DNA of 64,000 nt from Octopus sinensis (Eukaryota): NCBI RefSeq assembly GCF_006345805.1, contig NC_043007.1:71486001-71550000 (forward strand). The letters are read 5' to 3'. Shown one piece after another: positions 1-61,829 of the stretch (positions are counted from its first letter, which is position 1; each line of letters starts with the position of its first letter). The position numbers and the translations under genes were made by a program. A model generated the notes under the pieces. That model had not been told where the DNA came from. It made no database searches and saw nothing but the letters and a program-made list of their open reading frames with translations.

Positions 1-1539
1 TTTTGTTAAATGTCAATCCTCGAATATGTTTTTCTACATCACATGGTTTAATTCCTACAAGTTCAAAGGCTTTAATAAAGGGGGTTAGATCTTTCCCAAG
101 ATCATAGGCAACCTTCAACATATCACAAGCCCCTGAAGTGAAATCTGTATAATGATGCCAATATATTTCATTGGCAATAAGGAAAACTCGATAAGCTTCC
201 ATGATATCCATTTTTAATTCGTGTACAATGTAGTAAAAAATAAAATTATAAATCCCACTACCATGATGAGGATCCGTGTTTTCAGTGAAGTTATCTACAT
301 GACTTATCGATATATTGTCCAGGGATGGATCTGCCATAAATCTCAATGCTTCCTTATGTTTCAGGAGGTTGAAGCCAATTAACCAGTCATTTTTATCTAT
401 ATAATTTTCAGTAACTTCTCCTGTAATATCAGAAAAAGCCTCATTCATAGATCCAGACTGATTCAAGTAAATCAATCCAGAGTGTTGTTCTGTGAAACCA
501 TGAGCAAATTCATGTGCAACAACATCAGCATCTGTTAAAGGATAAAAGTATTTATAGCCATCACCAAATGTGCAATGTTTCCCATCCCAAAATGCCTCTT
601 CATAATTTTTCCCATAATGAACACGCAATATAGCTTGTTCGTTTAGTATTGAAGTATTATAACATTCCTGAAACATTTGAGATACTACACTGCCGTAATA
701 GAAAGCATCAAGTGCTGGAGATATCGCTGCATTGACACTATCATTAAAACCAACGTCACAAAGATAATACATAGGATCTGTATAATTAGAGACTCTCCCA
801 ATACTGTTTTGCATGTCTATAACCTTTACATAATTATTTTCCAGGAAACACATGTCACCAATTTGAGTTACAAAAGCTTTGTGATTTTTGTCACTAAATT
901 TGTATATTCCTGATTTTTCATTACCACCGGAACCAGTCAGTACTGTGGAAATGGTATCTAAATTGTTATATTTTAACAGTATTTCTCCAGTGTTACCATC
1001 AATGACAAATGTAGGCCGTTTAATAACTACTTCATTTTCTATTCTATAATTTATATCGTATACTAATCGAGGTTTGTCATTTTCATCCATGAAAATCATA
1101 ATTTCATATTCTGGTTCGATACTATTTGCGTAAATCTCATCTCCCTCTGCTTTAAAAGCAATATCAAAGACATCTGATTTGGAAAGCTTTGGTTTTACAT
1201 TTGTAATATCATCTTCAATTCCTTGAATAAATGTTCCTGTTGCATCACCAGTCAAATGTCCATCTTTATCTTCTGTAACAGTTAATGAAGCATCAAAAAC
1301 AGGAACACCTAAGAACTTCTCTTGTAAGCGTAAAACTTCTGTGCCTTCAACTGTTTTGATACGGTTTGACTCTTCAACTTCTTCATACTACTTCAAACCA
1401 AGAAGATCTCTGACTGTTACTTTAGCTTTATCTAAATGACGACGCTGAAACGGAGCTGAGGGATGATAAATCATCCTCCTTGCTCTTTCATGAGCATCAA
1501 CACGATAAGCTGCATCAGATGTCTTTATCAGTAATAAAC
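1..1539 (-). CDS. Exon 2 of a peptidase M4 (vibriolysin/pseudolysin-like) pre-pro-metalloprotease; continues beyond base 1; one in-frame TAG at 1390-1388, so possibly a pseudogene or null allele
   Basis: Acceptor ttttcattatttag|GT at 1540/1539. Manual translation: LLLIKTSDA-AYRVDAHE...RLQEKFLGVPVFDASLTV (FTP)...KPKLSKSDVFDIA...FVIDGNTGEILLKYN (PepSY)...GSGGNEKSGIYKF...NAAISPALDAFYYG...LRVHYGKNYEEAFWDGKHCTFGDG...VVAHEFAHGFTE (HExxH 514-500)...GSMNEAFSD (445-428)...DPHHGSG...GACDM...VGIKPC. Frame otherwise open to the window edge. Confidence 0.93.
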
Positions 1540-1809
1540 CTAAATAATGAAAACATTACAATTATTAATAACAGAACCATTAGGATTTTTTCTTTAAGAC
1601 GGACACTAATTTTTTGACAATACATAGTAAATAAACATCTGGGGCAGGCCTAATTTATTTTTTTAAAATTGTAATTAATTAACAATTCACATTAATACAA
1701 ATATGAACTTATAGTTTAAAATATATAGCTCATTGAAGAAATACATCAGTATCAAGAAATTCATCCAAAAAGAAATTCAATGGGTTTTTGCAGTTAATTT
1801 AGTGTTTGG

Positions 1810-3001
1810 TGAAATAGGGAGGTGATTTGTTAGACGGAATGAATAACTTTTAAGTGAATGGTTGCGAGTGACCTTTTAGTAAAACAACAAGCATAGCATT
1901 CAAACCAGAAATCTCAATACAAACATTTCAGATCGATTGAGTGTCAATCTGAAGACAGTGCAGAAGATTCGGAAAGAGTTGGATGAGTCCAATTGTAATT
2001 ACGAAGTTACGTCAGTTCCGAAAACTCACTCTGATCTGATAAGAAAAGAACTCCTGAAATTGTTGGTGAGATCCAGGCCATGATTGATAACGATTCCTCC
2101 AAGTCAATCAGGTCGATCGCCAGGGACATGAAAGTGTTTGAGTTTCTTATCAAGCAGGTAGTACTTCAAGGCATTCGGTATTCCTCATGCAAGATGAGAA
2201 AGGTCCAATTTTAATCTCAAGCCATCAAAGACAAGAGGAAAGACTGAACTACAGATCTTTTGAACAAACTCCCCTCTAACTGAACATGCTTTGGTTTTTC
2301 CCAGGTGAGTAAAAATTCTGCCAGGATTAGATGGTGAACACACAGAACCACCATTGGCTTGCTGTGTCCCCAAAACATGTACCGAGGGTGATAAAAATTA
2401 AACATCTCGTCAACATCATGATGTTTGGAGTGATCACTAGTCATAGCGACGTTATGCCTCCATTCATCTTCCCACGCGGCCTCAGACTCAACACGGAAGC
2501 CTACAACAAGTGCTTGGAAGTGTTAGCGTTGCCCTGGGTCAAGAGAGTGGCTGCTGGATGACCCTATGTCTGGCAACATGACTCTGCACTTGTCACACAA
2601 GCAGGAGAACCCAATCATAGTTGTCAGACAATTTCTGGGACCACATCACCCCTAACATCTGGCCACCTAACTCCCAGAATGCGATCCTCTTGATTATTGT
2701 GTGGGGCGCAGTTGAGAGACCAACAAAACTCCTTGTAACACTAAAGATGATCTGACGGCAAAGATTATAGCAGCATTCACCAGCTTAAGCAAGGAGACTG
2801 TCCTGAAGACCTGCAGTAGATTCCGGAGTTGTCTGGAAGTCATGGTTGAAACCAATGGCGATTTTATTGAATAAATTTACTTTTTAGTATTTCAAGATAT
2901 TTTTTATGTAATTTTGGTAAAATGTATCTGTTAAAATGAGAGGTCAGCATTATTTTCATATTTGCGTAATGTAGACGACGATTTATTCACCACACCTTGT
3001 A
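1810..3001 (+). mobile_element. Degenerate maT-family (ITmD37D) Tc1/mariner transposon, left end missing
   Basis: Broken transposase: KHLVNIMMFGVITSHSDVMPPFIF...WQHDSA...HITPNIWPPNS..(N)PLDY, consistent with DD37D spacing; right TIR-like end ttattcaccacaccttg|ta at ~3001. Confidence 0.75.
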
Positions 3002-3944
3002 TCCGTCTTGTGCGTTTACATTCCTGTCTTCTACCAAGAAATCTAATGCTTACAGCTTAGTTTTTTTCTTCTTGGGGCTGGCTGAGTTGGAGCAAATATA
3101 AGAATTGAACAGCCGAAATTTGCTATGATGATTCGGTGTCTGACTGAAGATTGAAGGCTTCGAATGATTTGTCTGTGTTCCGTGATCGTCCCTTCCTGTA
3201 TTTCACGTTCATTATATATAAAAACATTCATTCTTATATTATTGCGGCGTTACGTGCCCCCCCCCCCCCCCGTTTGTTTGTCCAATTTTAAACCCTGCAC
3301 GACTTCTTTACACACTGTCTTTTCCTACCCGCCATTGCTTCTTCACCAAACTATTTTGGCGCCCTCCGATTCTTCCCCCCTCTTCCTCCCATCCTCCTTA
3401 ATCCCTTCTTTCTCCTTTTCTCTTGGTCACTGATTCTGTCCCCTGCCTTCCAACCTCTTTGATTCCTCTCTCTCTGTCTCTCTTTCTCTCTCTCTCCTGC
3501 GACCTGCTGATTCTTAACCATTCTGTTGGCCATCGTATCTTGACCAACATGTGTCTCCGCTACCGAAACGGTAATTATTTCTACGCCAGCTGCTATGTTG
3601 TTGTTGTTTTGTCTCATTTGGTCTAAAGTCGTATGACAACCACCGTTATATATATTTTGTTTATTCATTACTGTTTTCAATTTCGTTTTCGTCTCTTGTA
3701 TTTACATCCGTCTTGTGCGTTCACATTCCTGTCTTCTACCAAGAAATATAATGCTTACAGCTTAGTTTTTTTTTCTTGGGGCTGGCCGAGTTGGAGCAAA
3801 TATCAGAATTGAACAGCCGAAATTTGCTATGATGATTCGGTGTCTGACTGAAGATTGAAGGCTTCGAATGATTTGTCTGTGTTCCGTGTTCGTCCCTTCC
3901 TGTATTTCACGTTCATTATATATAAAAACATTCATTCTTATATA
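3001..3944. repeat. Pair of ~240-bp direct repeats (3001-3239, 3706-3944) around a 470-bp spacer; pseudo-LTR-like ends of a Penelope-like element
   Basis: Near-identical atccgtcttgtgcgt...cattcttatat blocks; adjacent to Penelope-like RT fragment. Confidence 0.75.
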
Positions 3945-4069
3945 TATATATATATATATATACATATATATACATATATACACATACATCCATACATATG
4001 CACACATAAATACACATACATGCATTTTTTAATATTTTTGTGTTTGTTTTCCTCTGAGTCTGTAGTTGA

Positions 4070-4550
4070 GATGCCTTCTGCTTTCGTGACTACTGTGTCA
4101 ATTAATCTAGTGGGATATTTTTGTCCTTTTAGAAATACTTTTAATTCTTGTAATCTTCTATCCCTTAATTCTGCATCTATTACTATAGTGCAAATTCGTT
4201 TTGCCATATTAAAGGGTATGTTTCTTTTGGTATGTGAGGGAGGTGAGCAATGAATGTTCAAATACTGGTGTGTGTCAGAGGGTCTGCAGAAAAGGGCTGT
4301 TTTTATGGTGTTATCTTCTTTAATTAGAAGCATGTCTAAAAATGATAACTCCTTTGTGTGTCGTTTCATAGTGAATTTTATTGAGGTAAGTAAATTTTTG
4401 AAAAGTGAGTGAAAGATCCCTAAGAAGGACCTGCGAATGAAAAAGACACTGGAAACATATAGGATTATTAAAAGCAAATTACCCATCAAAAATACAACCC
4501 CACTAGTCAAAATGTGCAACCGCCCTAACTGCGGGATTTGCATCTTCCTC
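4070..4550 (-). mobile_element. Penelope-like element fragment: RT thumb on minus strand (4430-4070) abutting an inverted linker/endonuclease-lead piece on plus strand (4430-4550)
   Basis: IKFTMK...LSFLDML...DTHQYLN...HTKRNIPFNMAKRICTIV (minus); PLVKMCNRPNCGICIFLL (plus). Confidence 0.8.
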
Positions 4551-5100
4551 TTAGATGTTGTAGCTTCAGAGTATATAGGAATTTTTGAGAAATAATTTTT
4601 TGGATGGGGTGGAGAGAGGAGTTTTGGAAAATTCACACAATCTGACTTTTTTCCCTCATAACTTTCAGGAAGATGGGTATCTTTTAATGAAAATTTATAC
4701 AACTCCCTTTCAAACGGCATAGATTAGGATTATAAAGAAATTTGTGGGGGAAATTTTTTCAGGGCTTTTCCTCATTCTTTTTGAAACTACAGCTTTCGAA
4801 ATGATGGGGTGGGGAGGCATCTTTGTATGAAAAAAGTTTTGTAAACTCTTTTTTTATATATTTCTTCCTCCATCATCCCACTCCGAACCTATTTCCGCCA
4901 GTTTTTTTTTACACTTCAAAACTATGGGAAGAGTATTTAGGGTAATTTTTTTTTTTAATTGTTAATATTTTCAAGGAAAAAAATTGAGTGATTTAAGGGC
5001 GATTTGGATGTTGTTTCTAGCATATCCAAAGACAACCTTCCTCGTTTCTTTATCACTCTCGCATGTATTGTTTTTCAATATTTTCCCCATAATACATTTA

Positions 5101-5990
5101 TCTCTATATATAAAACTGAGAATGTGTGTCTGTCTGTCTGTGTGTTTCCCTAAAACTTGAAAACTACACAACCAATTTCATTCAAATTTTACACATGTCT
5201 TACTTAGGGTCCAGGGAGTGTCATCGGCAAAAAATGTTTAACTTTTTGCCTAGGGCGAGCCCACAGCAATATCATATCTTCTCCACTACGATTCCCTAAA
5301 ACTTCAGAACTACACAACCAATTTCATTCAAATTTTACACATGCCTTACTTAGGGTTCATGTAGTTTCATGGGCAAAAAAAATGTTCAACTATGGGCGAG
5401 CCCATTGCAATATCATATCTTCTCCACTATTTCAGTATTACGTGTTAAAAGTGAAACAAAAACATTTCTCTATTTTATGTCAGATACTTTCACTTTAACA
5501 ATAAAAATTAGAGATAATAATAACAATTGAATTATATGTTGTAAGTAATAATTAAAATCAAACTAAAGTATAATATAATCGTATCATAACAAAAGTAAAA
5601 ATAGCAATTGGTATAAAATTGCATCAATGACTTGAACTTGAATAAGTGGTTTCACATGAATGGGAATAAATTAAAAATAAAATTAGCGTGCAGAAATGGA
5701 ATATTATACATAAAGGACTATAGCTTCAACTGCGTACTGCTTTTTGATTCACCGTAAGGCTTGTTGTTATTAATATTACTGTTTAACTATTGTTATCACG
5801 TTTGTTGGTTCCTCGTAAGGGAAACGTTGTTGTGTTGCATTTGTTAAATAATTGTTTAAAAATTGAATTGTGTCCCTGTTTGGGGAAATTGACAATATTT
5901 TCACCGTTTACACGGAAGCATTTTTGTTAGAATGCCTTCGATAGAAGAAAGTCCAAAAATGAATTTCGCTGCAGCCGTCGGCGGGCGCGA
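5101..5990 (+). mobile_element. Non-autonomous Helitron-like element with an internal ~135-bp tandem duplication
   Basis: Starts A|TCTCTATATATAAAACTGAGAATG followed by (GTCT)n, the layout of Lep1/HINE-type elements; tacacaaccaatttcattcaaatttt...catatcttctccacta unit occurs twice (5167, 5310). Confidence 0.45.
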
Positions 5991-6124
5991 ACTCATTAAA
6001 ATTAAAATGGAAGAAATACAATCCTATTACGGATTGATCACCGACAAAGACGGTGAATCTAGGATAACACCACCAAACGAAATAAAAAATTAAATTAAAG
6101 AAAAGACTATTGTCTATTAAGTAT

Positions 6125-6470
6125 ACGATGTAGAGAAAAAAAAAGATTTGAACACCTGGAGGAAAGCACCATCGAAAAGTGTCTTGGTGCGACTATGAAA
6201 GATATCTAACCAGAGGCAGTAAATTCGCCACAATAGAAGCAAGGTTCGAATCAACGGAGCGTGCAAGGGAGTACTCGACTTGAACCTTGCAAAGTGGAAA
6301 TATGTTATTTTCACCTTTATATCTGGGACGTAGGACGTCCCGGATAAAAATTTAAAATGTCCCCCCAGAAGTAGAGGTAGGCTGGATTGTAGCCACACTT
6401 CTATACAAGATGGAGGACAAGATACTATTGATCGAAATTGCAAGAGATGGGCCTGCAATTCCAGTCTGTT
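6125..6470 (+). mobile_element. Degenerate non-LTR retrotransposon ORF1-like fragment
   Basis: Frameshifted YLTRGSKFATIEARFESTERAREYS...LFSPLYLGRRTSRIKI...PPEVEVGWIVA; family assignment from recollection only. Confidence 0.3.
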
Positions 6471-6942
6471 ATATATTTTGAGTATTGTTATCATTAGCGA
6501 TATCAAGATATAACTTTGTATTTTGTATTTTATGAGTAGATGTATATATATATATATATAGATGTACATGTAATATGTACACATATATATATACACATAT
6601 ATACATGCACTAGCACTATGATCCGGCAACGACGGGTCATAATGCTAGTATGCTATAAAAAAGAAAATTTGAGAAATTATGAATTTTTTGCAACCTCGCT
6701 CCCTGGCCCCGATTGTTTCTGTTTAGAAACGAAAAAAATTGGAGAGCCTGAGAAGGTCATTACTGGCATTTATCCACAGTGATTTTTAAGAATTACGGAG
6801 ATGTACTTGTATAGCAAGTGACTTGATATGAGATCGTGTGCTGACATAAAAACAATTGCAACATACACGTTTGTAAGCCATTCAAGGACACACAGAAACC
6901 GTTAGTTTCATGGCACTACAGAGGCACTACTTAAATACTTTA

Positions 6943-7156
6943 AGGCGGTGAGCCGACAGAAACGTTAGCCGCATTTCGTCTGTCTTTACGTTCTGAGTTC
7001 AAATTCCACCGAGGTCGACTTTGCCTTTCATCCTTTCGGGGTCGATTAAATAAGTACCAATTACGCACTGGGGTCGATATAATCGACTTAATCCGTTTGT
7101 CTGTCCCTGTTTGTCCTCTCTGTGTTTAGTTTTGTGGGTAGTAAAGAAATAGGTAT
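6943..7156 (+). mobile_element. tRNA-derived SINE, family B (ggcgg.gagctggcagaa.cgttagc head; gtagtaaagaaatagg tail)
   Basis: Shares gttcaaattcc.ccgaggtcgactttgcctttcatcctttcggggtcga core with copies at 25621, 27990 and 32890. Confidence 0.85.
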
Positions 7157-7187
7157 TTATGATGTCTGTGTACAAACAGCAACGCCG

Positions 7188-7840
7188 CATGATAGTGAAA
7201 CATGGGCTGTGACTACTAAGAGCATGTGAAGGCTTGAAAGAAATGAAGCAAATATGCTCTGCTAGATGGGTAATGTCAGTGTGCATATACAACAGGGTGT
7301 AAGTGATTTGAGAGAAAAACTGGGTATATGAGGCATCTCATGTAGTGTGCAAGAGAGAAGACTGCGCTGGTGCAGTCATGTAATGTGTATGAATGAATCA
7401 AAAACTGCCGAGCTCTAATTGTGGAGGGAATGCGTGGAAAAGGTTGACTCAGGAAGACTTGAGACGGAGTAGTGAGACAGGATCTTCAAATGTTTGGCCT
7501 CACAGAGGGGATGACTGGAAACCAAGACTTCTAGCAGTTTGCTGTGCTTTAGAAGACACATTAAGCCAAGTAAATACGCAGTCGTCCTTGCCTACAGGTG
7601 TGTCCCCTGCATCCCTCTTCAGCTAGGTATTCATAATCTTGCAAGCTAGTGCGTGTGAGTGCTACATAAAAAGCACCCATACTAGTGCCAAATGGCTGCT
7701 GTGTAAGAGCACACAATACACTTTGTACATTAGTTAGTATTAGGAGGGGCATCGAGCCATAGAAACTATGCCAAAACAGACTTGGAGACTGGGTAGGTCT
7801 TCAGCTGACCAGCCTTGGTCAAACGATCAAACCCATGCCA
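7188..7840 (+). mobile_element. RTE-clade LINE 3' end and 3' UTR, degenerate
   Basis: SETWAVT...RRLRW..HV...GRPRKTW-like remnants followed by aaaaagcaccc...caaacccatgccag UTR shared with other RTE copies in the window. Confidence 0.75.
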
Positions 7841-7956
7841 GATTGGATTCTATAAAATGTTTCATATAGAAAATGTGTCATTTGTCATCATAAGAAAACA
7901 TAAAGATAAAATATATGTAAATTTAAACAATGATAAGTTCTTGAAAATATACTTAC

Positions 7957-8008
7957 TGCCAAATAGAAGATACCAGGAATAAAATAATATAAACATCAAA
8001 TTCCTCAT
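7957..8008 (-). CDS. Exon 1 of the M4 protease gene (signal peptide N-half, MRNLMFILFYSWYLLFG)
   Basis: ATG at 8008, 17 codons + 1 nt, then donor A|GTAAGT at 7956. Phase 1 matches the exon-2 acceptor (A+GT=Ser) and gives a continuous hydrophobic leader MRNLMFILFYSWYLLFGSLLLIKTSDA. Donor and reading frame are conserved in the paralogous copy at 17896-17848. Confidence 0.82.
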
Positions 8009-8083
8009 GATTGCAAAATATTCACAAATATTATGCTCTTTCCAAAAACCAGCTCAAGGTTTAAACTGGTCCTTTCTTACCCT

Positions 8084-8091
8084 TATTTATA
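8084..8091 (-). promoter_or_regulatory. TATA box (TATAAATA) of M4 protease copy 1
   Basis: TATAAATA on the minus strand 83 nt upstream of the ATG; preserved unchanged in the otherwise ~80% identical paralogous promoter. Confidence 0.6.
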
Positions 8092-9769: not shown

Positions 9770-10730
9770 ACCCATTGGATTTTTCTATGAAAAAACATGT
9801 ATTCCCACGCAGAAACAATATCTCAGAAGCCTAATTGAGAAAACAGGGCACTTTATCCGAAGAATGAGATAGCAGGAATATTTCTTTGATATGAAAGAGC
9901 AACAGAATAACGTAAACAAATACAGACTTAAATCTACTAAAAACTCACCACCTATTTCAGAATTAGAACTTTTTGGAAAAGGCTTTTCAAACTCATTACG
10001 ATAAAATTTCATAAAATCAGCAATTCACTCCAGAGAATTATGAACGAAAAAATTAGAAGCATAAATAATTCAGATACGATTTTCGTGAACTCCAACAAAA
10101 CAAAAAACAAACTATAAGCGGCTGAAAAAGATCTTTACAAACGACTTTTTCTAATAGCATTAGAGACACTTATAAAAAAAGCTAACACTAATTTATATAA
10201 AGAAGTGAATAAGGAAGCAAGAAGGATCACTACCATTCTTAGAGTTAGTGATAGGATAGAATACCTTCCTCCGCGTCAACCCTTTATTAATTACCCTTAA
10301 GGACCACTAAGCCAATTTTTGTAGAAACCCTAAATGTCGACTAATTAACCCAGCAAAAACAGAAATAGTTATTATTAGCAAGAATATCTTAGATTCTATT
10401 CTAAATAAGTTAGATACGGAATTAGATTTATGGATTTGGGGTAATGGTAAGTTCATAATAGATTATAGCATTAGACATAGAAATAATTGCAAATTTACGC
10501 AATTTGATATTGTCAACGTTCACCCGTTAATATCCATGCCACTACCTCTTAAAGCATTAGATTTCGCCAAACAATACATTAGCATCGACAGTTCAGATAT
10601 AGATATTATCCTGCATACCAGGAAATCCCTCCTTTTTTATGGCAATTTCACCTGGGTTAAAAAGATTGAAGACTCTTTATTGCCTTTATTTGATGTGCCG
10701 ATGGGTGCGTACGACAGGGCGTAAATTTGT
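9770..10730 (+). mobile_element. Penelope-like element, Naiad-type RT 5' half, frameshifted and truncated
   Basis: QYLRSLIEKTGHFIRRMR...LKDH.ANF..NPKCRLINPAKTEI...QFDIVN...KALDFAKQY...RKSLLF...FDVPMGAYD(G)A motifs. Confidence 0.75.
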
Positions 10731-11113
10731 ATATTCCTGATTTTTCATTACCGCCGGAACTGGTCAGTACTGTGGAAATTGTATCTAAATTGTTATATTT
10801 CAACAGTATTTCTCCAGTGTTACCATCAATGACAAATGTAGGCCGTTTAATAACTATTTCATTTTCTATTCTATAATTAATATAGTATGTTAATCGAGGT
10901 TTGTCATTTTCATCCATGAAAATCATAATTTCATATTCTGGTTCGATACTGTTTGCATAAATCTCATCTCCCTCCGCTTTAAAAGCAATATCAAAGACAT
11001 CTGATTTGGAAAGCCTTGGTTTTACATTTGTAATATCATCTTCAATTCCTTGAATAAGTGTCCCTGTTGCATCACCAGTCAAATGTCCATCTTTATCTTC
11101 TGTAACAGTTAAT
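10722..11113 (-). pseudogene. M4 protease paralogue, exon-2 fragment (end of FTP, PepSY, start of mature domain); no catalytic domain
   Basis: 392 bp ungapped match to 895-1286 with 16 substitutions by manual count (~96%); ORF track 10657..11082 translates it. Bounded by a CR1 tail upstream and a Penelope-like RT downstream. Confidence 0.92.
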
Positions 11114-13559: not shown

Positions 13560-15520
13560 TAGTAATAAAAGTCATTATTATGAGATGATTAAAAAGTCAG
13601 AAAACAAAGCATACCATGGTTTCTGCAAAGCTATTCATTGTTAGTGGTTTTAATTGAAGGGTTAGTGGTTTTCTGTATTAAGTTGTGTGTTCATATTTAG
13701 TTGGGGGAGATATTTATTGATGAAAATGCCTCTTTATTCAACCTTTGTTGCAATGTTCTGTGAACATTGATAGAAGGGGAAGATTTGGAAATTAGGATTA
13801 AGATTCCTGGCACACCTTTCTATGTGTTCACTAACCTGTAACTGTCTGTATTGTGGGTAGCAGATTTGCTCTTTGTGAATGGTGGTTCTTTGACGGAGTG
13901 AAATTCCTGTTTGTCCAATATAACAGTTACCACATCCTAAGCATGTCATGACATAGATTAGATTTTCAGAGGCGCAGGTGAATTTTGATTTGATCTTAAA
14001 TATATCTCCTTGTTTGAAGTGAAATTCTGAACCCTCCAAAAGGTGGGGGCATGTTCCACAGTTAGTACGACCACATTTTTTCACTTTTGGCTCTGTTGTT
14101 AGTGGATATAGTCTTGTGCTGGTTAATATTTTTTTCGGTGACTTCGGTTGCTTTTTGCTTTTTATAATTTTGTATGAGCTTAAAATTTCATTCATTGTTT
14201 TGTTTGCTGTGAGGATGGGAAGATTTTGGGTGATTATGTTGAAGGCTTCGTTGTTTGTAGGGTTATGTGTGGAAATGTATGGGAGTATTTTTAAGTCTGG
14301 TTTGGTATTTCGGCTGGTTTGCCTTAACATTTGTATATCTATTTCCTTAGCTCTTTTAATGCCTTCATTTATTAATGAGATTGGGTAATGTCTTTTAGTT
14401 AGTGTTGATCTAAGTTCAAGAAGTCTTTGTTCATGAGTATATGTATTCAAAACTATGGTACAGATTCTTTTCGCTAGATTAAAGGGTATATTAATTTTTA
14501 TGTGTTTGGGGTGGCAAGAGTTAAATAATAGGTATTGTTTAGAATCTGTGGGTTTATAAAAGATATCTGTTTCTATGTGGTTGTTAACTATTTTAATTAA
14601 GATGTCTAGAAAAGGGAATTGTTTACTGTTGTGTTCCATAGTGAATTGTATATTGCTATGTATGTTGTTAAGCATTATTTTGAAATCAAGGAGTTTATCC
14701 ATACTGTCTTTCCAAAGTATGAAGCAGTCATCCAAATATCTCTTCCAGTTCTCCTTTAAATAGCAATTAAAAGAGGTGCCATATTTTTCTAGTATGATTG
14801 TTATAACTTGAATTCTAGGTAACCCATTACAAGGTTTGCAATCACTGGAGCAGCTCTGGTTCCCATTGCAATTCCACATTTTTGTTGATAGTAAGTTGTA
14901 TTGAACATGAAATAATTGTTCAGCAGGATGAATTTGAGTGCTTCAATTATAAAACTGCGGTATCTCTTCTGGGTATTTTTCTAGCCAGAATGTGATTGCT
15001 TCTATACCATAGTTGTATGGGATATTGGTGTATAGATTCACCACATTGAAAGATACCAGCAGGGTTCCTTCCTTTACTGTCTTCGGAAGGTGGTTCAGCA
15101 TGTCTAGGTCATCCCTGATAAAGCTTTTCACATATTTTAAAAAAGGTTTGAGTAATATGTCGAGGAAGTTGCTCAAACGGTGGGTTTCACAAGAAGGGCC
15201 AGCTATGATGGGTCTCAGTTTGAGGTCAGTAGGTGGGGGGAGGGACATTAATGCATAGGCTTGTAGAGACTTTGCAGGCTTCACAAATGTGTGGATTTTT
15301 ATGTATTTTGGGTAATCCGTAGAATAGACTAGGACTGTATTTAAAATTGGATAAATAGTCTATTTCATGTTTAGTGAGACCCTTTCCTTGAATTTGGAGT
15401 AAGGAGGATAAGTTTTTCAGTGTTTTCTGTGGGTTGTAATGTATCAATTTCTCATAGTAAGTATTATTTTCCAACTTGGAAAGTATTAAATTTTTGTAGT
15501 ACTCTGTATCCATCGAAGCA
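13560..15520 (-). mobile_element. Near full-length Penelope/Poseidon-type retroelement (RT + GIY-YIG endonuclease), frameshifted
   Basis: LRPIIAGP, SFNVVNLYTNIP, GIAMGTRAAP (shifted frame), WKRYLDDCFILW, PFLDI, NLIYVMTCLGCGNCYIGQTG. Confidence 0.95.
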
Positions 15521-17505: not shown

Positions 17506-17847
17506 GTGCTGGTGGAGAGCAACAGTATAATAAAACCATAGGTTGAGAAATAGAGAATTGATATAAAGAGAAAGGGGTAAGACAGGAATGCACTGTCACA
17601 GAGATGAAGGTCCAATGTTTGCAGGGTCAAATATAGTGAGTGAGAAACAAAGGTATTGGGTAGTCACTTTATACTGGGTATCAGATGAGTGTTCAGGGTG
17701 AAAAAAAGGGCAGTCAATAGAAAATAAAGTAGGTAGGGATTCTACAAAATGTTTCATGTAGAAATGTGTCATTTGTCATCATAAGAAAATATTAAGATAA
17801 TATACATGTAAATTTGAACAATGAAAAATTCTTTAAAATATACTTAC

Positions 17848-17896
17848 TGTCAAATAGGAGATGCCAAGAACAAAATATAATCAACAAATGCCTCCT
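17848..17896 (-). pseudogene. M4 protease paralogue exon 1 with start codon lost (ATG to AGG)
   Basis: (R)RHLLIIFCSWHLLFD + A|GTAAGT, aligned to exon 1 of copy 1 with one codon deletion; same phase-1 donor. Confidence 0.8.
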
Positions 17897-17970
17897 GATT
17901 GCATAATATTCACAAATATGTTCTTTCCCAAAAAACCAGATCAATTCTTAACCCAATACTTTCTGAGTTT

Positions 17971-17978
17971 TATTTATA
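17971..17978 (-). promoter_or_regulatory. TATA box of M4 paralogue
   Basis: TATAAATA at the position equivalent to 8091-8084. Confidence 0.5.
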
Positions 17979-18315
17979 TTGTCAGCATGACTACTATGAG
18001 GGCCACCCACTCTCTCAGTACCTTCATCAGTTCAGGGTGCAGTTTACAAACAGATGGGGACACCAAATACTTGTTTTCGTTACATATGTCGGTAATAGGC
18101 TCATTTAGTCCCCATTATTTCTAAATTGCTACTTGACATTTAAGGTGAAATAACGAGGTATTTGCTTATTTATTTATTCTTTCTCATTAATATTAATTGC
18201 TAAAGCTACAGAATCCTTTCAATAAATAGGTTACACCCCAAATGACTCAATACTATAATAGTAATAATCAGTATAGATCAAAATTTATGATAACTTATAC
18301 TCTCTCTCTCTCCCT

Positions 18316-18709: not shown

Positions 18710-20336
18710 TCTTTACGTCTCTGTATTATTTTAGTTTCTGAAATAGTTTTCCACTCATTCTTTTTGTAAAATTCTCTCCAATCTCATAAATGTCTGAAAA
18801 CGTTTAAAAAAAACAACAAACTATCCAGTTGATCATAAAGCAGATACAGCATGTTTCTTTGCTTAAATTAATTATAACAAGCCAGGAAAATTGTCTTCTG
18901 ACCAAGGCAGTTTCAAAAATTTATTACATTTAAAATTTTTTCCAGTGACCAAGTATTTCTTTTATGAATCCTCTACAATTTAAATATTATAACTAAACTG
19001 TTACTACTTGTAAAACACATATTTGACTTAAGTCAGTTAACTGCATTCTTTAATTTGTGTTCCACATTTCAAGTTATTCAATGATTTTAAATGATAATTT
19101 TGGAACTGGCGCAAAGGAATAACAATGCTTCTCATTATTTGATAGGTTTTTTAATAAAGATGAACATACAAATTAACCATACTTCAAACAGTAACATTAT
19201 TGGGTTGGTTATGAAAAAAGACAAAAAATGGTTATTAAGGCATTATCAAATATGAAAAAAAAAAAACCTTAATAACCATTTTATGCCTTTAGACTTTGGC
19301 ATAAAGCCAACAGTACTTCATTATCTATGAAAATCTAGGAACTCAAGGATAGTAATAGTGAATTTTGCCTAAAATGGAATATAGTCCGTAGAGCTCAGCC
19401 ATGCAAAAATAACCGATATGGAAAGTGGTTTTTTTCACCTGGTACCATTTTCAGAGGCCTCTAAATATTATATTATACCTTGTACATTGTGAATATTCTT
19501 ATCTTGAATGGATCAGTCCTCAAATACAAGAAACCCAGTATATACAATTTGGCCTCATAAGGGACCCTTGAATGTTGATTTTTTTTTCCACCCATGAAAA
19601 GGTTCATATTTGAAAGGCCAATAACTTGAAAATGAAGGGAGATAGAGCAATTCTGATAGCAGATTCTGACAGGCTGGGTTTGGATTACTCGGAGTAATTT
19701 CAGTTAAATACTAAGATTAGTTTTAAAGATATTCAGCACCAAAATCTGTATAAATTAACATTTGCACTCCACAAGGGGCATAGCCCTCAAATTTTGGAGG
19801 AGCATATCTTTGAAAGCCTTAGAAATTGGTCCCTAAAATTATATATGTACTCCTTATGCATATAGAGATATTGTCAAAATAAATTTGAGCCAATTCTGAG
19901 TTGGTCATGAATATAGCTTTGGTTGAGTTCATATATACAAATACAAAGCATCAAAGTATAATTGCTATCTGTGTATTATACTAAATGTATACATGCCATT
20001 AGAGGCATGATGCTGTGGAATGTTTTATTCAGTTTACCTATGTAACAAGGCACAAATATCATTTAAGCAAGTGACAATAGATTGCACAGCATTGACAAAT
20101 TTAAGAGGGCTGAAATGCATCTGTCTTTGTGGATCACTGCAATTATGATATTTGTCTCACTTCAACATATATTGTGTTTTTAACACATCAAGCCTGTGAA
20201 GAGATTTTATCTCAGACAATTCCACACCATCATACCTTTTAATGGTGTATATACATTTACTATGATACAAAGATAGCATATGTGTACACACACACAAGTA
20301 TACATATATGTATGTATGTAAATGTGTGTGTGTGTG

Positions 20337-32249: not shown

Positions 32250-33320
32250 AAGTGAGGCAGTTGACCGGCCTACCGCATCTCTCGGGGAGGGAGGCAGAGT
32301 GCTGTGAAGGGCCAATCACAGCTGCAGGAGTGGAGGAGGCATTGTCGGAGTGTAGTGGTGACAGGTCACCCGGTCGCGATGGTCTCCCCTATGAATTGTA
32401 TTATACTATGGCAGACTTGTTTGGGCACCTGCTGGCCTGTGTCTTCAATAACTGGCAGCAGAACGGGAGTATTCCTGTGTCTCTGAGCCAGGGAGTGGTG
32501 ATACTGATCAGGAAGGACCCAAACAAGGAGGAGATAATTGACAACTTTAGGCTCATCACCCAGCTTAACGCAGAGTTGAAGATTCTGGCCAAGGTATTAG
32601 CTAAATGGCTGGATAAAGTCATAGATGGTATTGTTGGGGAGGCACAAACCTGCACCATCCCCGGCAGGACTATACACGATAATATCCACCTTATACACTT
32701 ATACATTATAGAAAGGGTAAATAGGATTCCTGGCAAGGGTGTTGCATTGGTCCGTTTAGACCAATCGAGGACCTTTGATAGGTTGGATCATTGGTATCTG
32801 GCGGCGGCCTTCCATGGCTGGAGCAACACTTTATATAGCAATGTCAAGTCGGTAATTCGGGTGAACGGTTTCTTTTCAGAGCCATTCAATATCTATTTCT
32901 TTACTGCCCACAAGGGGCTAAACACAGAGAGGACAAACAAGAACAGACAAACGGATTAAGTCGATTATATCGACTCCAGTGCGTAACTGATACTTATTTA
33001 ATCGACCCCGAAAGGATGAAAGGTAAAGTCGACCTCGGCGGAATTTGAACTCAGAACGTAACGGCTGACGAAATACCGCTAAGCATTTCGCCCGACGTGC
33101 TAACGATTCTGCCAGCTCGCCACCTTCAATATTGAACGCTTGGTTCGTCAGAGTTGTCCACTTTCGCCTCTGCTGTATGTCTCGAGCCACTATTGTGGAC
33201 ACTGTCACTGTCATCGTATCCAGGGACCAGGATCGACAGAGGGGAGGTGAGGCCCTAAAAGATTACGAAGCAGTGGCAGGAACAAGAATTAACCGATATA
33301 AGTCGCTCAGCACCTGAAGA
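32250..33320 (+). mobile_element. L1/Tx1-clade LINE RT fragment, interrupted by SINE B (32890-33125)
   Basis: GPIT...SPGRDGLPYELY...GVVILIRK...NFRLITQLNAELKILAKVLA...GRTIHDNIHLI...LDQSRTFDRLDH; resumes after the SINE with QSCPLSPLLY; ttcaatat flanks the SINE on both sides. Confidence 0.88.
32890..33125 (-). mobile_element. SINE family B
   Basis: Full-length reverse copy. Confidence 0.9.
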
Positions 33321-61678: not shown

Positions 61679-61829
61679 GTTGGTTGATATCTTAATTGAA
61701 AGAAGTCAAAAGCTGGGTTGCTATAAGATCTCCTTAGAATGTAAAATGGAACTGATACCTTTCTACAATAAGTTTGGTCTTAAACAAGAAGAGAGCTGTA
61801 ATTGTTTAGTACTGCGGTTCAGGGACTAA
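61679..61829 (+). CDS. GNPNAT1: GNPNAT1 last coding exon
   Basis: cctcaacag|G; (L)LVDILIERSQKLGCYKISLECKMELIPFYNKFGLKQEESCNCLVLRFRD-stop. All exons sum to 546 nt = 181 aa + stop. Confidence 0.94.

Follow-up and report, generated by a model that had tools for sequence, protein, structure and literature searches.

The window, a 64,000-nucleotide stretch of the Octopus sinensis genome, carries on its minus strand a two-exon gene for a zinc endopeptidase of peptidase family M4, of the vibriolysin/LasB type. The gene is read here as one unit of a tandem array, its family as the likely result of a single acquisition from a proteobacterium before the cephalopods and bivalves separated, and its product as a likely secreted digestive protease; to this reading as a whole a probability of roughly 60% is assigned. 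The coordinates of all features are given in Table 1.

Table 1. Features of the M4 gene and of the relics of its upstream neighbour (positions in the window).
Feature	Position	Strand	Details
TATA box TATAAATA	8084-8091	-	76 nt 5' of ATG
Exon 1, coding part	7957-8008	-	52 nt, ATG at 8008, phase 1
GT-AG phase-1 intron	1540-7956	-	6,417 nt, high-copy repeats
Exon 2	1-1539	-	matching phase; runs ~320 nt further left of base 1 to the stop
Premature in-frame TAG	1388-1390	-	inside propeptide, 50 codons into exon 2
FTP (PF07504)	1250-1366	-	E 4.6e-5, above cut-off
PepSY (PF03413)	974-1189	-	E 1.2e-4, 22.8 bits vs 24-bit cut-off (below)
Peptidase_M4	488-904	-	E 1.2e-24, 87.9 bits vs 22.4; HEFAH at 514-500
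Peptidase_M4_C	50-481	-	E 3.7e-26, 92.4 bits vs 24.4; NEAFSD, ALRF, DPHHGSG
Relic exon-2 fragment, upstream tandem copy (L010)	10722-11113	-	95.9% identical to 895-1286
Relic promoter and exon 1, same upstream copy	17737-18303	-	78% identical, start codon lost

The TATA box, the separate signal-peptide exon and the 6.4-kb GT-AG intron, all of which had been claimed in an earlier sequence-only reading of this DNA, were confirmed. The TATA box is kept in five of the seven exon-1 copies and reads CATAAATA in a sixth. Exon 1, which is also used by the NCBI models of the paralogues, encodes with its 17 codons the beginning of a predicted signal peptide; exon 2 is free of introns and encodes the remaining signal peptide, the propeptide, the catalytic domain and the start of the C-terminal domain. 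The intron opens with the donor GTAAGT at 7956 and closes with a pyrimidine-rich acceptor (AG at 1541-1540). It had been described as filled with transposable elements: it is indeed full of high-copy repeats, with summed contig depths from hundreds to about 1 million times the single-copy level in most bins (two DNA-type runs), and the description rests on this repeat depth because the intron ORF at 3938-4720 was given no family name by Pfam.

The splice junction 7957/1539, previously proposed as a check, was read exactly in one contig of run X1, the only one of the four runs compared to contain it and, by our guess, an RNA run. This contig agrees with exon 1 of the present copy at 30/30 letters and is distinct from the remaining exon-1 copies. 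The copy-specific flanks are present at single-copy depth in the DNA-type runs X2 and X5, and base composition (GC3 0.24, GC 0.34) is similar to that of the host window. A host gene lies on the same contig of 77.5 Mb; its last exon at 61701-61829 (+), identified by sequence motifs, is presumably GNPNAT1-like, in keeping with the gene named there before. Intron, junction contig, GC and host gene together place the gene in a host chromosome with eukaryotic gene structure: it is a spliced octopus gene, encoded by the host. Bacterial contamination or mis-assembly, which might be suspected from the fact that the closest named proteins outside the molluscs are bacterial, is already refuted by the spliceosomal intron with its junction contig, the host-like GC, the length of the contig, and orthologues from three species of Octopus, from Argonauta and from 13 further mollusc genera.

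With the open frame 1387-2 as the Pfam query, FTP, PepSY, M4 and M4_C were recovered, and all of the motifs quoted earlier are there; only PepSY scored just below its cut-off, which it passes in the relative P0009. The zinc motif consists of HEFAH and NEAFSD, with H, E, H, E and D invariant in 31/31 sequences, and the catalytic residues of LasB (Glu, Tyr, Arg, His) are all retained. Four Cys residues are likewise invariant in 31/31 mollusc-type sequences, as expected for the two Cys pairs of LasB pattern that had been proposed; three of the four are aligned to LasB Cys, the fourth being placed just beyond the end of the printed alignment, and the bonds are predicted from sequence only. Among solved structures the best matches are LasB pro-elastase, with E 8e-83, and MCP-02, with E 4e-61; thermolysin is far weaker (E 8e-31). 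This supports the assignment to the Gram-negative vibriolysin/LasB type rather than to Bacillus thermolysin. The intact paralogue P0003 was folded to stand in for the window copy, and its predicted fold (pLDDT 83) was superposed on MCP-02 (3nqx) with TMt 0.96 and rmsd 1.5. Membership of family M4 is thus supported by zinc motif, domain scores and thermolysin-like fold; zinc endopeptidase activity is predicted. A PPC-type C-terminal domain had been expected left of base 1: the C-terminal domain of the P0003 model matches the PPC structure 5sv5 (E 7.7e-4, TMt 0.67) and the atlas gives PPC as its lead for residues 515-656 (0.89), but a Pfam PPC match was obtained in 0/9 mollusc proteins, and the tail is suggested by these models to be a degenerate PPC.

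From the domain layout, residues and splice described above and by analogy with the biology of LasB and MCP-02, the following course of action is proposed: the signal peptide, split across both exons, would direct the zymogen into the secretory pathway, where the FTP and PepSY propeptide would fold and block the enzyme until removed autocatalytically. Zinc would be bound by HExxH and the NEAFSD Glu, cleavage before bulky hydrophobic residues would be promoted by the hydrophobic S1' pocket, and the degenerate PPC-fold domain could bind insoluble substrates such as collagen.

Searching the genome for M4 loci gave 17 candidates and 14 matches, which correspond to 11 loci, 7 of them with an open full-length exon 2. 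The window gene belongs to a tandem array with three intact copies (87-92% identical). Upstream of it, the relic exon-2 fragment is flanked by unrelated DNA, and further homology was seen at 18729-19204. For an orphan exon 1 at C11:71,444k, no exon 2 was found within 20 kb around. Among four copies, 51 of 125 codons are variable in the stretch 251-375 versus 7 of 150 in codons 1-150; the propeptide of the window copy has dN/dS values of 0.14-0.37, and the edge-strand residues 111-114 (LasB numbering) vary between paralogues. That the paralogues differ mainly at the substrate cleft is possibly a new observation; with a near-uniform propeptide and differing clefts, the tandem copies could act as a series of enzymes that each prefer other substrates. 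Positive selection in the cleft is not claimed, dN/dS exceeding 1 in only one of six pairs (2.6, on 1.5 synonymous changes).

The open reading frame implied by the sequence-only reading is interrupted by the TAG, which that reading had missed. A frame open from signal peptide to catalytic domain is present in the three neighbours but not in the assembled window copy, which could not make the enzyme, the TAG sitting in the propeptide. The NCBI model of this copy (P0126) begins after the doubtful stop and is without signal peptide and propeptide. A young pseudogene, with a TAG both real and common and with the three intact neighbours doing the work, would agree with this start of P0126, with the truncated C-terminus, with a Cys in place of a conserved Trp (codon 664-662) and with the decayed copy directly upstream. 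It is nevertheless unlikely: the O. vulgaris orthologue P0125 is open at the TAG site (7/472 positions differ from the downstream model), contigs at full depth in X1, X2 and X5 contradict the letter of the Cys codon, and the spliced contig has the exon 1 of this very copy. The TAG site is covered in X2 and X5 by one unbroken contig at ~4x single-copy depth with one mismatch, and depth arithmetic on the contig records listed gave no second contig branch there in X2, X3 or X5; the letter at the site was deduced, each contig having one unlisted mismatch and one contig being clipped exactly there. Locus L005, moreover, is broken in this assembly and intact in O. vulgaris (P0131), which points to assembly errors. 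Judged by contigs from four other runs and by the orthologue in O. vulgaris, the TAG is likely an assembly error or a private or rare allele. A 25-nt deletion costs the C-terminus, which lies left of the window, ~20-25 residues relative to the paralogues, and this deletion is real (bridged gaplessly in X2 and X5, common to O. vulgaris). Because of this deletion and of a Glu where LasB has Asn112 (numbered by the alignment), the window copy may be weakened even when its frame is open.

Relatives were found in 15 named mollusc genera (cephalopods, bivalves and gastropods), among them the cloned Haliotis discus hannai metalloprotease AJF36072.1. They form one clade separate from the bacterial vibriolysins, with support of 96/98 (68 rows, LG+G4) and 99/96 (46 rows, mixture model), and this clade consists of two subfamilies, each with cephalopods and bivalves; position and phase of the intron are identical in 8/8 octopus loci checked from both. 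All named eukaryotes among the best matches listed are molluscs except one contaminant-flagged entry, which was placed among Shewanella/Vibrio. The trees were built from top-scoring matches only, without a thermolysin-type or fungal outgroup, with the root among proteobacteria and with long mollusc branches. The earlier proposal of a domesticated secreted M4 protease of bacterial origin is supported by the structure matches, the junction contig and the trees, and a single acquisition from a proteobacterium, preceding the cephalopod/bivalve split, is the likely origin of the family.

Unnamed eukaryote-like M4 sequences group with the mollusc clade at a support of 98/95 (87/90 when a second unnamed group is included), and the transfer may therefore predate the molluscs. 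These sequences share the 'ARRVD' start and have signal peptides of animal style; they form arrays with as many as five members on a single Mb-size contig, and include one mRNA-like contig with an AATAAA end. Among the 120 matches listed from a profile search, no named member of the unnamed sister group was present; cluster look-ups of P0031, P0264 and P0280 gave no names and the atlas bacterial clusters only, and of 80 metagenome loci one was placed in the sister group. The eukaryote-like rows lie on one side of a branch opposite 18-26 bacterial or unnamed rows, with a weak backbone and without a distant outgroup. The placement of two groups (P0030/P0040/P0257 and P0264/P0285/P0295) shifted between trees, so that both one and two eukaryotic acquisitions are left standing. 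Vertical descent of an old eukaryotic gene, with loss in most lineages, would require no transfer into animals; in its favour, the unnamed sequences branch below the molluscs and a single clade of all 42 eukaryote-like rows was not rejected (p-AU 0.35). Such descent is very improbable, given that the best matches listed include no named protist, fungal, plant, arthropod (bar the flagged contaminant) or chordate sequence, that identity to the proteobacterial enzymes is 36-40% with their disulphide pattern, and that exon 2 has no introns.

The family, retained in three mollusc classes, provides a clean and testable case of an old passage from bacteria into animals. Its intron was gained within the signal peptide ahead of an ancient duplication, and the copies of the young octopod array vary mainly where substrate would bind. 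If the unnamed relatives belong to other animal phyla, date and breadth of the transfer will need revision. A broader picture, to which we give slightly less than even odds, is that of a little-noticed animal M4 branch from one pre-mollusc bacterial transfer, in which the octopod array is diversifying its cleft and gene conversion keeps the propeptide uniform.

As to function, a digestive role is the likeliest. ZnMPs were amplified from cDNA of the hepatopancreas of O. bimaculoides, which was the sole tissue in the 2018 PCR, so that presence and not specificity was shown (PMC6011040). A salivary or venom component, suggested in the sequence-only reading, is improbable: a secreted protease with recent tandem expansion and fast cleft change is typical of venom genes, but in the rows listed of the O. 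vulgaris posterior-salivary proteome supplement 0/7 ZnMP accessions were found, nor was there any row with 'thermolysin', 'neutral protease' or 'hemagglutinin', the same words are absent from the main text of the cephalopod venom and gland papers examined, the cDNA came from hepatopancreas instead, and the family is present in non-venomous bivalves. Also unlikely, with the same family and origin, is a main role in the turnover of mucus, in immune defence or in tissue remodelling, hatching included; the family is kept alike in filter-feeding bivalves, grazers and predators, a PPC-like tail would fit matrix substrates, and a companion paper in Gene to the ZnMP data reportedly proposes immune and remodelling roles. 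Against this stands the digestive-gland cDNA as the only expression evidence, and the digestive role is preferred.

The high novelty and octopus-centred story first claimed for the gene were not borne out. NCBI already annotates the paralogues (as 'elastase' and 'neutral protease'), the family spans cephalopods, bivalves and gastropods, and ZnMP1-7 of Octopus bimaculoides were published as horizontally acquired, expressed Zn-metalloproteinases of bacterial origin (Liu et al. 2018, Data Brief, PMC6011040). That is the same claim for another Octopus species, and accessions were matched: ZnMP3 (XP_014776931.1), ZnMP4 (XP_014776937.1), ZnMP5 (XP_014781458.1) and ZnMP6 (XP_014782361.1) are in clusters of the matches found here, the cluster representative of ZnMP4 being 86% identical to the window frame. 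The locus itself therefore confirms a known case, the domestication of bacterial-type zinc proteases in octopus. In the data paper, family M4, the tandem array, the shared intron, cleft variation and non-mollusc relatives are not mentioned. A literature search outside subscription papers gave only PMC6011040 on this family and nothing on a wider animal M4 clade; the joining of unnamed eukaryote-like M4s to the mollusc clade is possibly new. The mollusc 'elastase-like' and 'neutral protease-like' NCBI models fall into one clade with the window gene, with bivalve and gastropod members at 41-45% identity, whereas the copies of the octopod C11 array, which expanded recently, are 87-92% identical.

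Thermolysin (Bacillus-type M4) has the same family and fold (TMt 0.81) but is distant, at 25-26% identity and E 1e-24 to 1e-30, and to our knowledge is without the LasB-type disulphides. MCP-02 (3nqx/3nqy) and LasB (1ezm, 8cr3; MEROPS M4) have the same layout (FTP-PepSY-M4-M4_C, with a putative PPC at the end of the octopus protein), zinc ligands and catalytic residues, and the S1' pocket and disulphide pattern are also common to them and the octopus protein (TMt 0.92-0.96 at 37-40% identity). Unlike these enzymes, the octopus gene has a eukaryotic promoter and intron, an animal signal peptide, a single, apparently degenerate PPC invisible to Pfam, and positions 111-114 that are variable between paralogues.

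The window carries a real, spliced and domesticated vibriolysin-type protease gene, one unit of a tandem array, and its product is most likely a secreted digestive enzyme. The TATA box, separate signal-peptide exon, GT-AG intron and phase-compatible exon 2 described in the sequence-only reading were all located (see the table), as were the M4 pre-pro layout and its motifs; Pfam returned FTP, PepSY (marginally below cut-off), Peptidase_M4 and Peptidase_M4_C in this order. The C-terminus is approximately 20-25 residues shorter than those of the paralogues because of a 25-nt deletion. The coding frame had been taken as open, and an in-frame TAG within the propeptide of the assembled copy (1390-1388) had been overlooked. 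The three degenerate ORFs, which gave no Pfam match, resemble retroelement RT/endonuclease C-termini by eye.

Coordinates of gene features and element remnants (window positions unless a contig is named)
Feature	Position	Strand	Basis or remark
TATA box	8091-8084	-	sequence inspection
Start codon ATG	8008	-	sequence inspection
Exon 1, coding part (52 nt)	8008 to 7957	-	sequence inspection
Intron, GT-AG (6,417 nt)	between 7957 and 1539	-	sequence inspection
Exon 2	1539 to past base 1	-	phase compatible with exon 1
Orphan exon-1 copy L017	G000:C11:71,443,756-71,444,187		TATA box lost, donor damaged
Reverse-transcriptase fragment RVT_1	32252-32956	+	Pfam, below cut-off
ISXO2-like transposase fragment PF12762	33318-33635	+	Pfam, above cut-off
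Degenerate ORF	3938-4723	-	by eye
Degenerate ORF	13734-15359	-	by eye
Degenerate ORF	10311-10724	+	by eye

Bacterial contamination was excluded. The window sits on a 77.5-Mb contig; coding GC (0.34) and GC3 (0.24) are in line with the AT-rich host; and the flanks specific to the window copy are at single-copy depth in the DNA-type runs X2 and X5. The 7957/1539 splice junction was found in one contig of X1, a run taken as RNA by guess: this contig leaves exon 2 precisely at 1539 and continues with 30/30 letters of the window copy's exon 1, including those that distinguish it from the other exon-1 copies. Contigs ending at 1539 were absent from the three other runs examined (four in all). Positions 61701-61829 (+) are presumably the last coding exon of a GNPNAT1-like host gene, identified by motifs; no further exons of it were located.

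The deletion is real, and the TAG is likely an assembly error or a private allele, as judged from run contigs, depths and the O. vulgaris orthologue P0125, which is open through the stop position and has the same short C-terminus. In each of the four runs, the listed contig spanning the site carries one mismatch (position near the contig end, letter deduced), and within that stretch the window copy departs from all three paralogues at the stop position. One X5 contig is clipped exactly at the site. Unbroken contigs cross it at about four times single-copy depth in X2 (38 vs 6-10) and X5 (196 vs 46-52), and by arithmetic on the contig records listed, the bin depths of X2, X3 and X5 do not accommodate a second branch. 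Another letter peculiar to the reference puts Cys where Trp is conserved; X1, X2 and X5 all contradict it at full depth. The N-terminus of P0125 is chimeric, beginning with a propeptide fragment that resembles a relic at 10722-11113 of the window; this suggests that the relic-plus-gene arrangement is common to both species and that the P0125 model misses the true exon 1.

A search of the octopus's own genome gave 14 matches from 17 candidates, corresponding to 11 M4 loci (seven with an open full-length exon 2, three broken, one fragment); octopus paralogues are already in the NCBI annotation. Three intact paralogues (92, 89 and 87% identical) lie in the same orientation 26-81 kb left of the window. 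Six exon-1 copies are in the cluster and one is at a far site on the same contig; the relic, its start codon lost, is paired with the copy at 17737-18303, and no exon 2 for the orphan L017 was found in the 20 kb examined. Some 320 nt downstream from where the window gene ends, L103:9142-9369 holds a second, diverged (47%) stretch of M4 C-terminal coding sequence. Far away on this contig, copy L005/L011 (G000:C11:31,414,941-31,416,322) is frameshifted in the assembly, and its O. vulgaris counterpart P0131 (645 aa) is unbroken; the frameshift is likely another assembly error or a null allele. A second-subfamily copy near L008 is broken into three pieces (L012-L014, G000:C10:4,189,469-4,190,803). 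In L007, L008 and L013, the intron end upstream of exon 2 is filled with long (ATT/TAT)n microsatellites, whose poly-Ile open frames add as many as 190 codons to the ORF; GC3 is 0.5 in this subfamily vs 0.24-0.33 in the other.

Among four near-complete array copies, amino-acid-variable codons number 7/150 in the first 150 and 51/125 in the cleft region. With residues placed by alignment to LasB (pseudolysin), none of the zinc ligands or catalytic residues changes, and edge-strand and S1'-lining positions vary. Synonymous divergence is also greater in the cleft region in five of six pairs, which would fit gene conversion of the propeptide; the cleft-focused divergence is presented as sequence variation and not claimed as positive selection.

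Homologues were taken from the best 120 of 679, 120 of 499, 150 of 17,956 and 120 of 2,144 matches. Named proteins among the matches listed cover 15 mollusc genera in three classes, followed by proteobacteria at 36-40%. Outside the molluscs these matches hold a single named animal entry, which is flagged as a contaminant and groups with Shewanella/Vibrio. The Haliotis discus hannai 'metalloprotease' P0378 (AJF36072.1) is a member; no matching paper was found in the literature search. Trees were built on a 298-column catalytic region from top-scoring matches, with long branches and no distant outgroup. Mollusc-type rows formed one clade in FastTree (SH 99, 313 rows), LG+G4 (96/98, 68 rows) and a mixture model (99/96, 46 rows); the two smaller sets were hand-picked to span groups, and a few rows in the clade are without a species label. 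Cephalopods and bivalves occur in each of two subfamilies. A phase-1 acceptor stands at the aligned signal-peptide position in 8/8 octopus loci checked, across both subfamilies, and the intron therefore likely predates their duplication.

Between the molluscs and all named bacteria fall further sequences that carry signal peptides and whose start is 'ARRVD'-like. In a first such group, 7/8 join the molluscs at 98/95 (mixture tree) and 12 rows at 98/99 (LG+G4); a second group of six shifts between trees. All eukaryote-like rows, molluscs included, form one group at 87/90 in the mixture tree, and the AU test does not reject a single clade of them (p-AU 0.35). Of the 'ARRVD'-type sequences, as many as five sit together on a 1.19-Mb contig, and P0280 (L063) occupies a contig of 2,470 nt whose untranslated ends are short and which has AATAAA 7 nt before it stops. 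These sequences may come from other animal phyla, and a bacterial transfer older than molluscs is a possibility at slightly below even odds. A 2018 article on octopus Zn-metalloproteinases reportedly dates most transfers to a molluscan ancestor. A search of literature outside subscription journals and bioRxiv supplements gave no paper on a wider animal M4 clade.

The proposed salivary or venom role found no support: M4-type terms occur in none of the searched passages of three cephalopod gland/venom papers, none of seven Zn-metalloproteinase accessions is in the portion of the PMC7693380 supplement examined, and passages of PMC7864903 do not bear on it. These seven horizontally acquired O. bimaculoides enzymes, nested among bacteria, were amplified from hepatopancreas cDNA (PMC6011040); four of the accessions belong to homologue clusters found here, and a term search of that paper's supplements gave no match. 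The earlier claim of a horizontally acquired, domesticated secreted protease stands as to host gene and bacterial type; the family is mollusc-wide and its bacterial origin already published (PMC6011040), so the core finding is known. Interest remains in the cleft-focused array divergence, the shared intron and the chance of a pre-mollusc transfer. The Gram-negative vibriolysin/pseudolysin pattern read earlier held up, the four Cys being unchanged in 31/31 mollusc-type sequences, and LasB and MCP-02 (vibriolysin) came well ahead of thermolysin in sequence and fold searches. Left of base 1, where the sequence-only reading proposed looking for PPC-type domains, the frame runs on for about 320 nt before ending; Pfam gave no PPC match, and the C-terminal domain in the predicted structure of the intact paralogue P0003 (pLDDT 83) is by its fold match a putative PPC domain, the model as such agreeing with MCP-02 at TMt 0.96.
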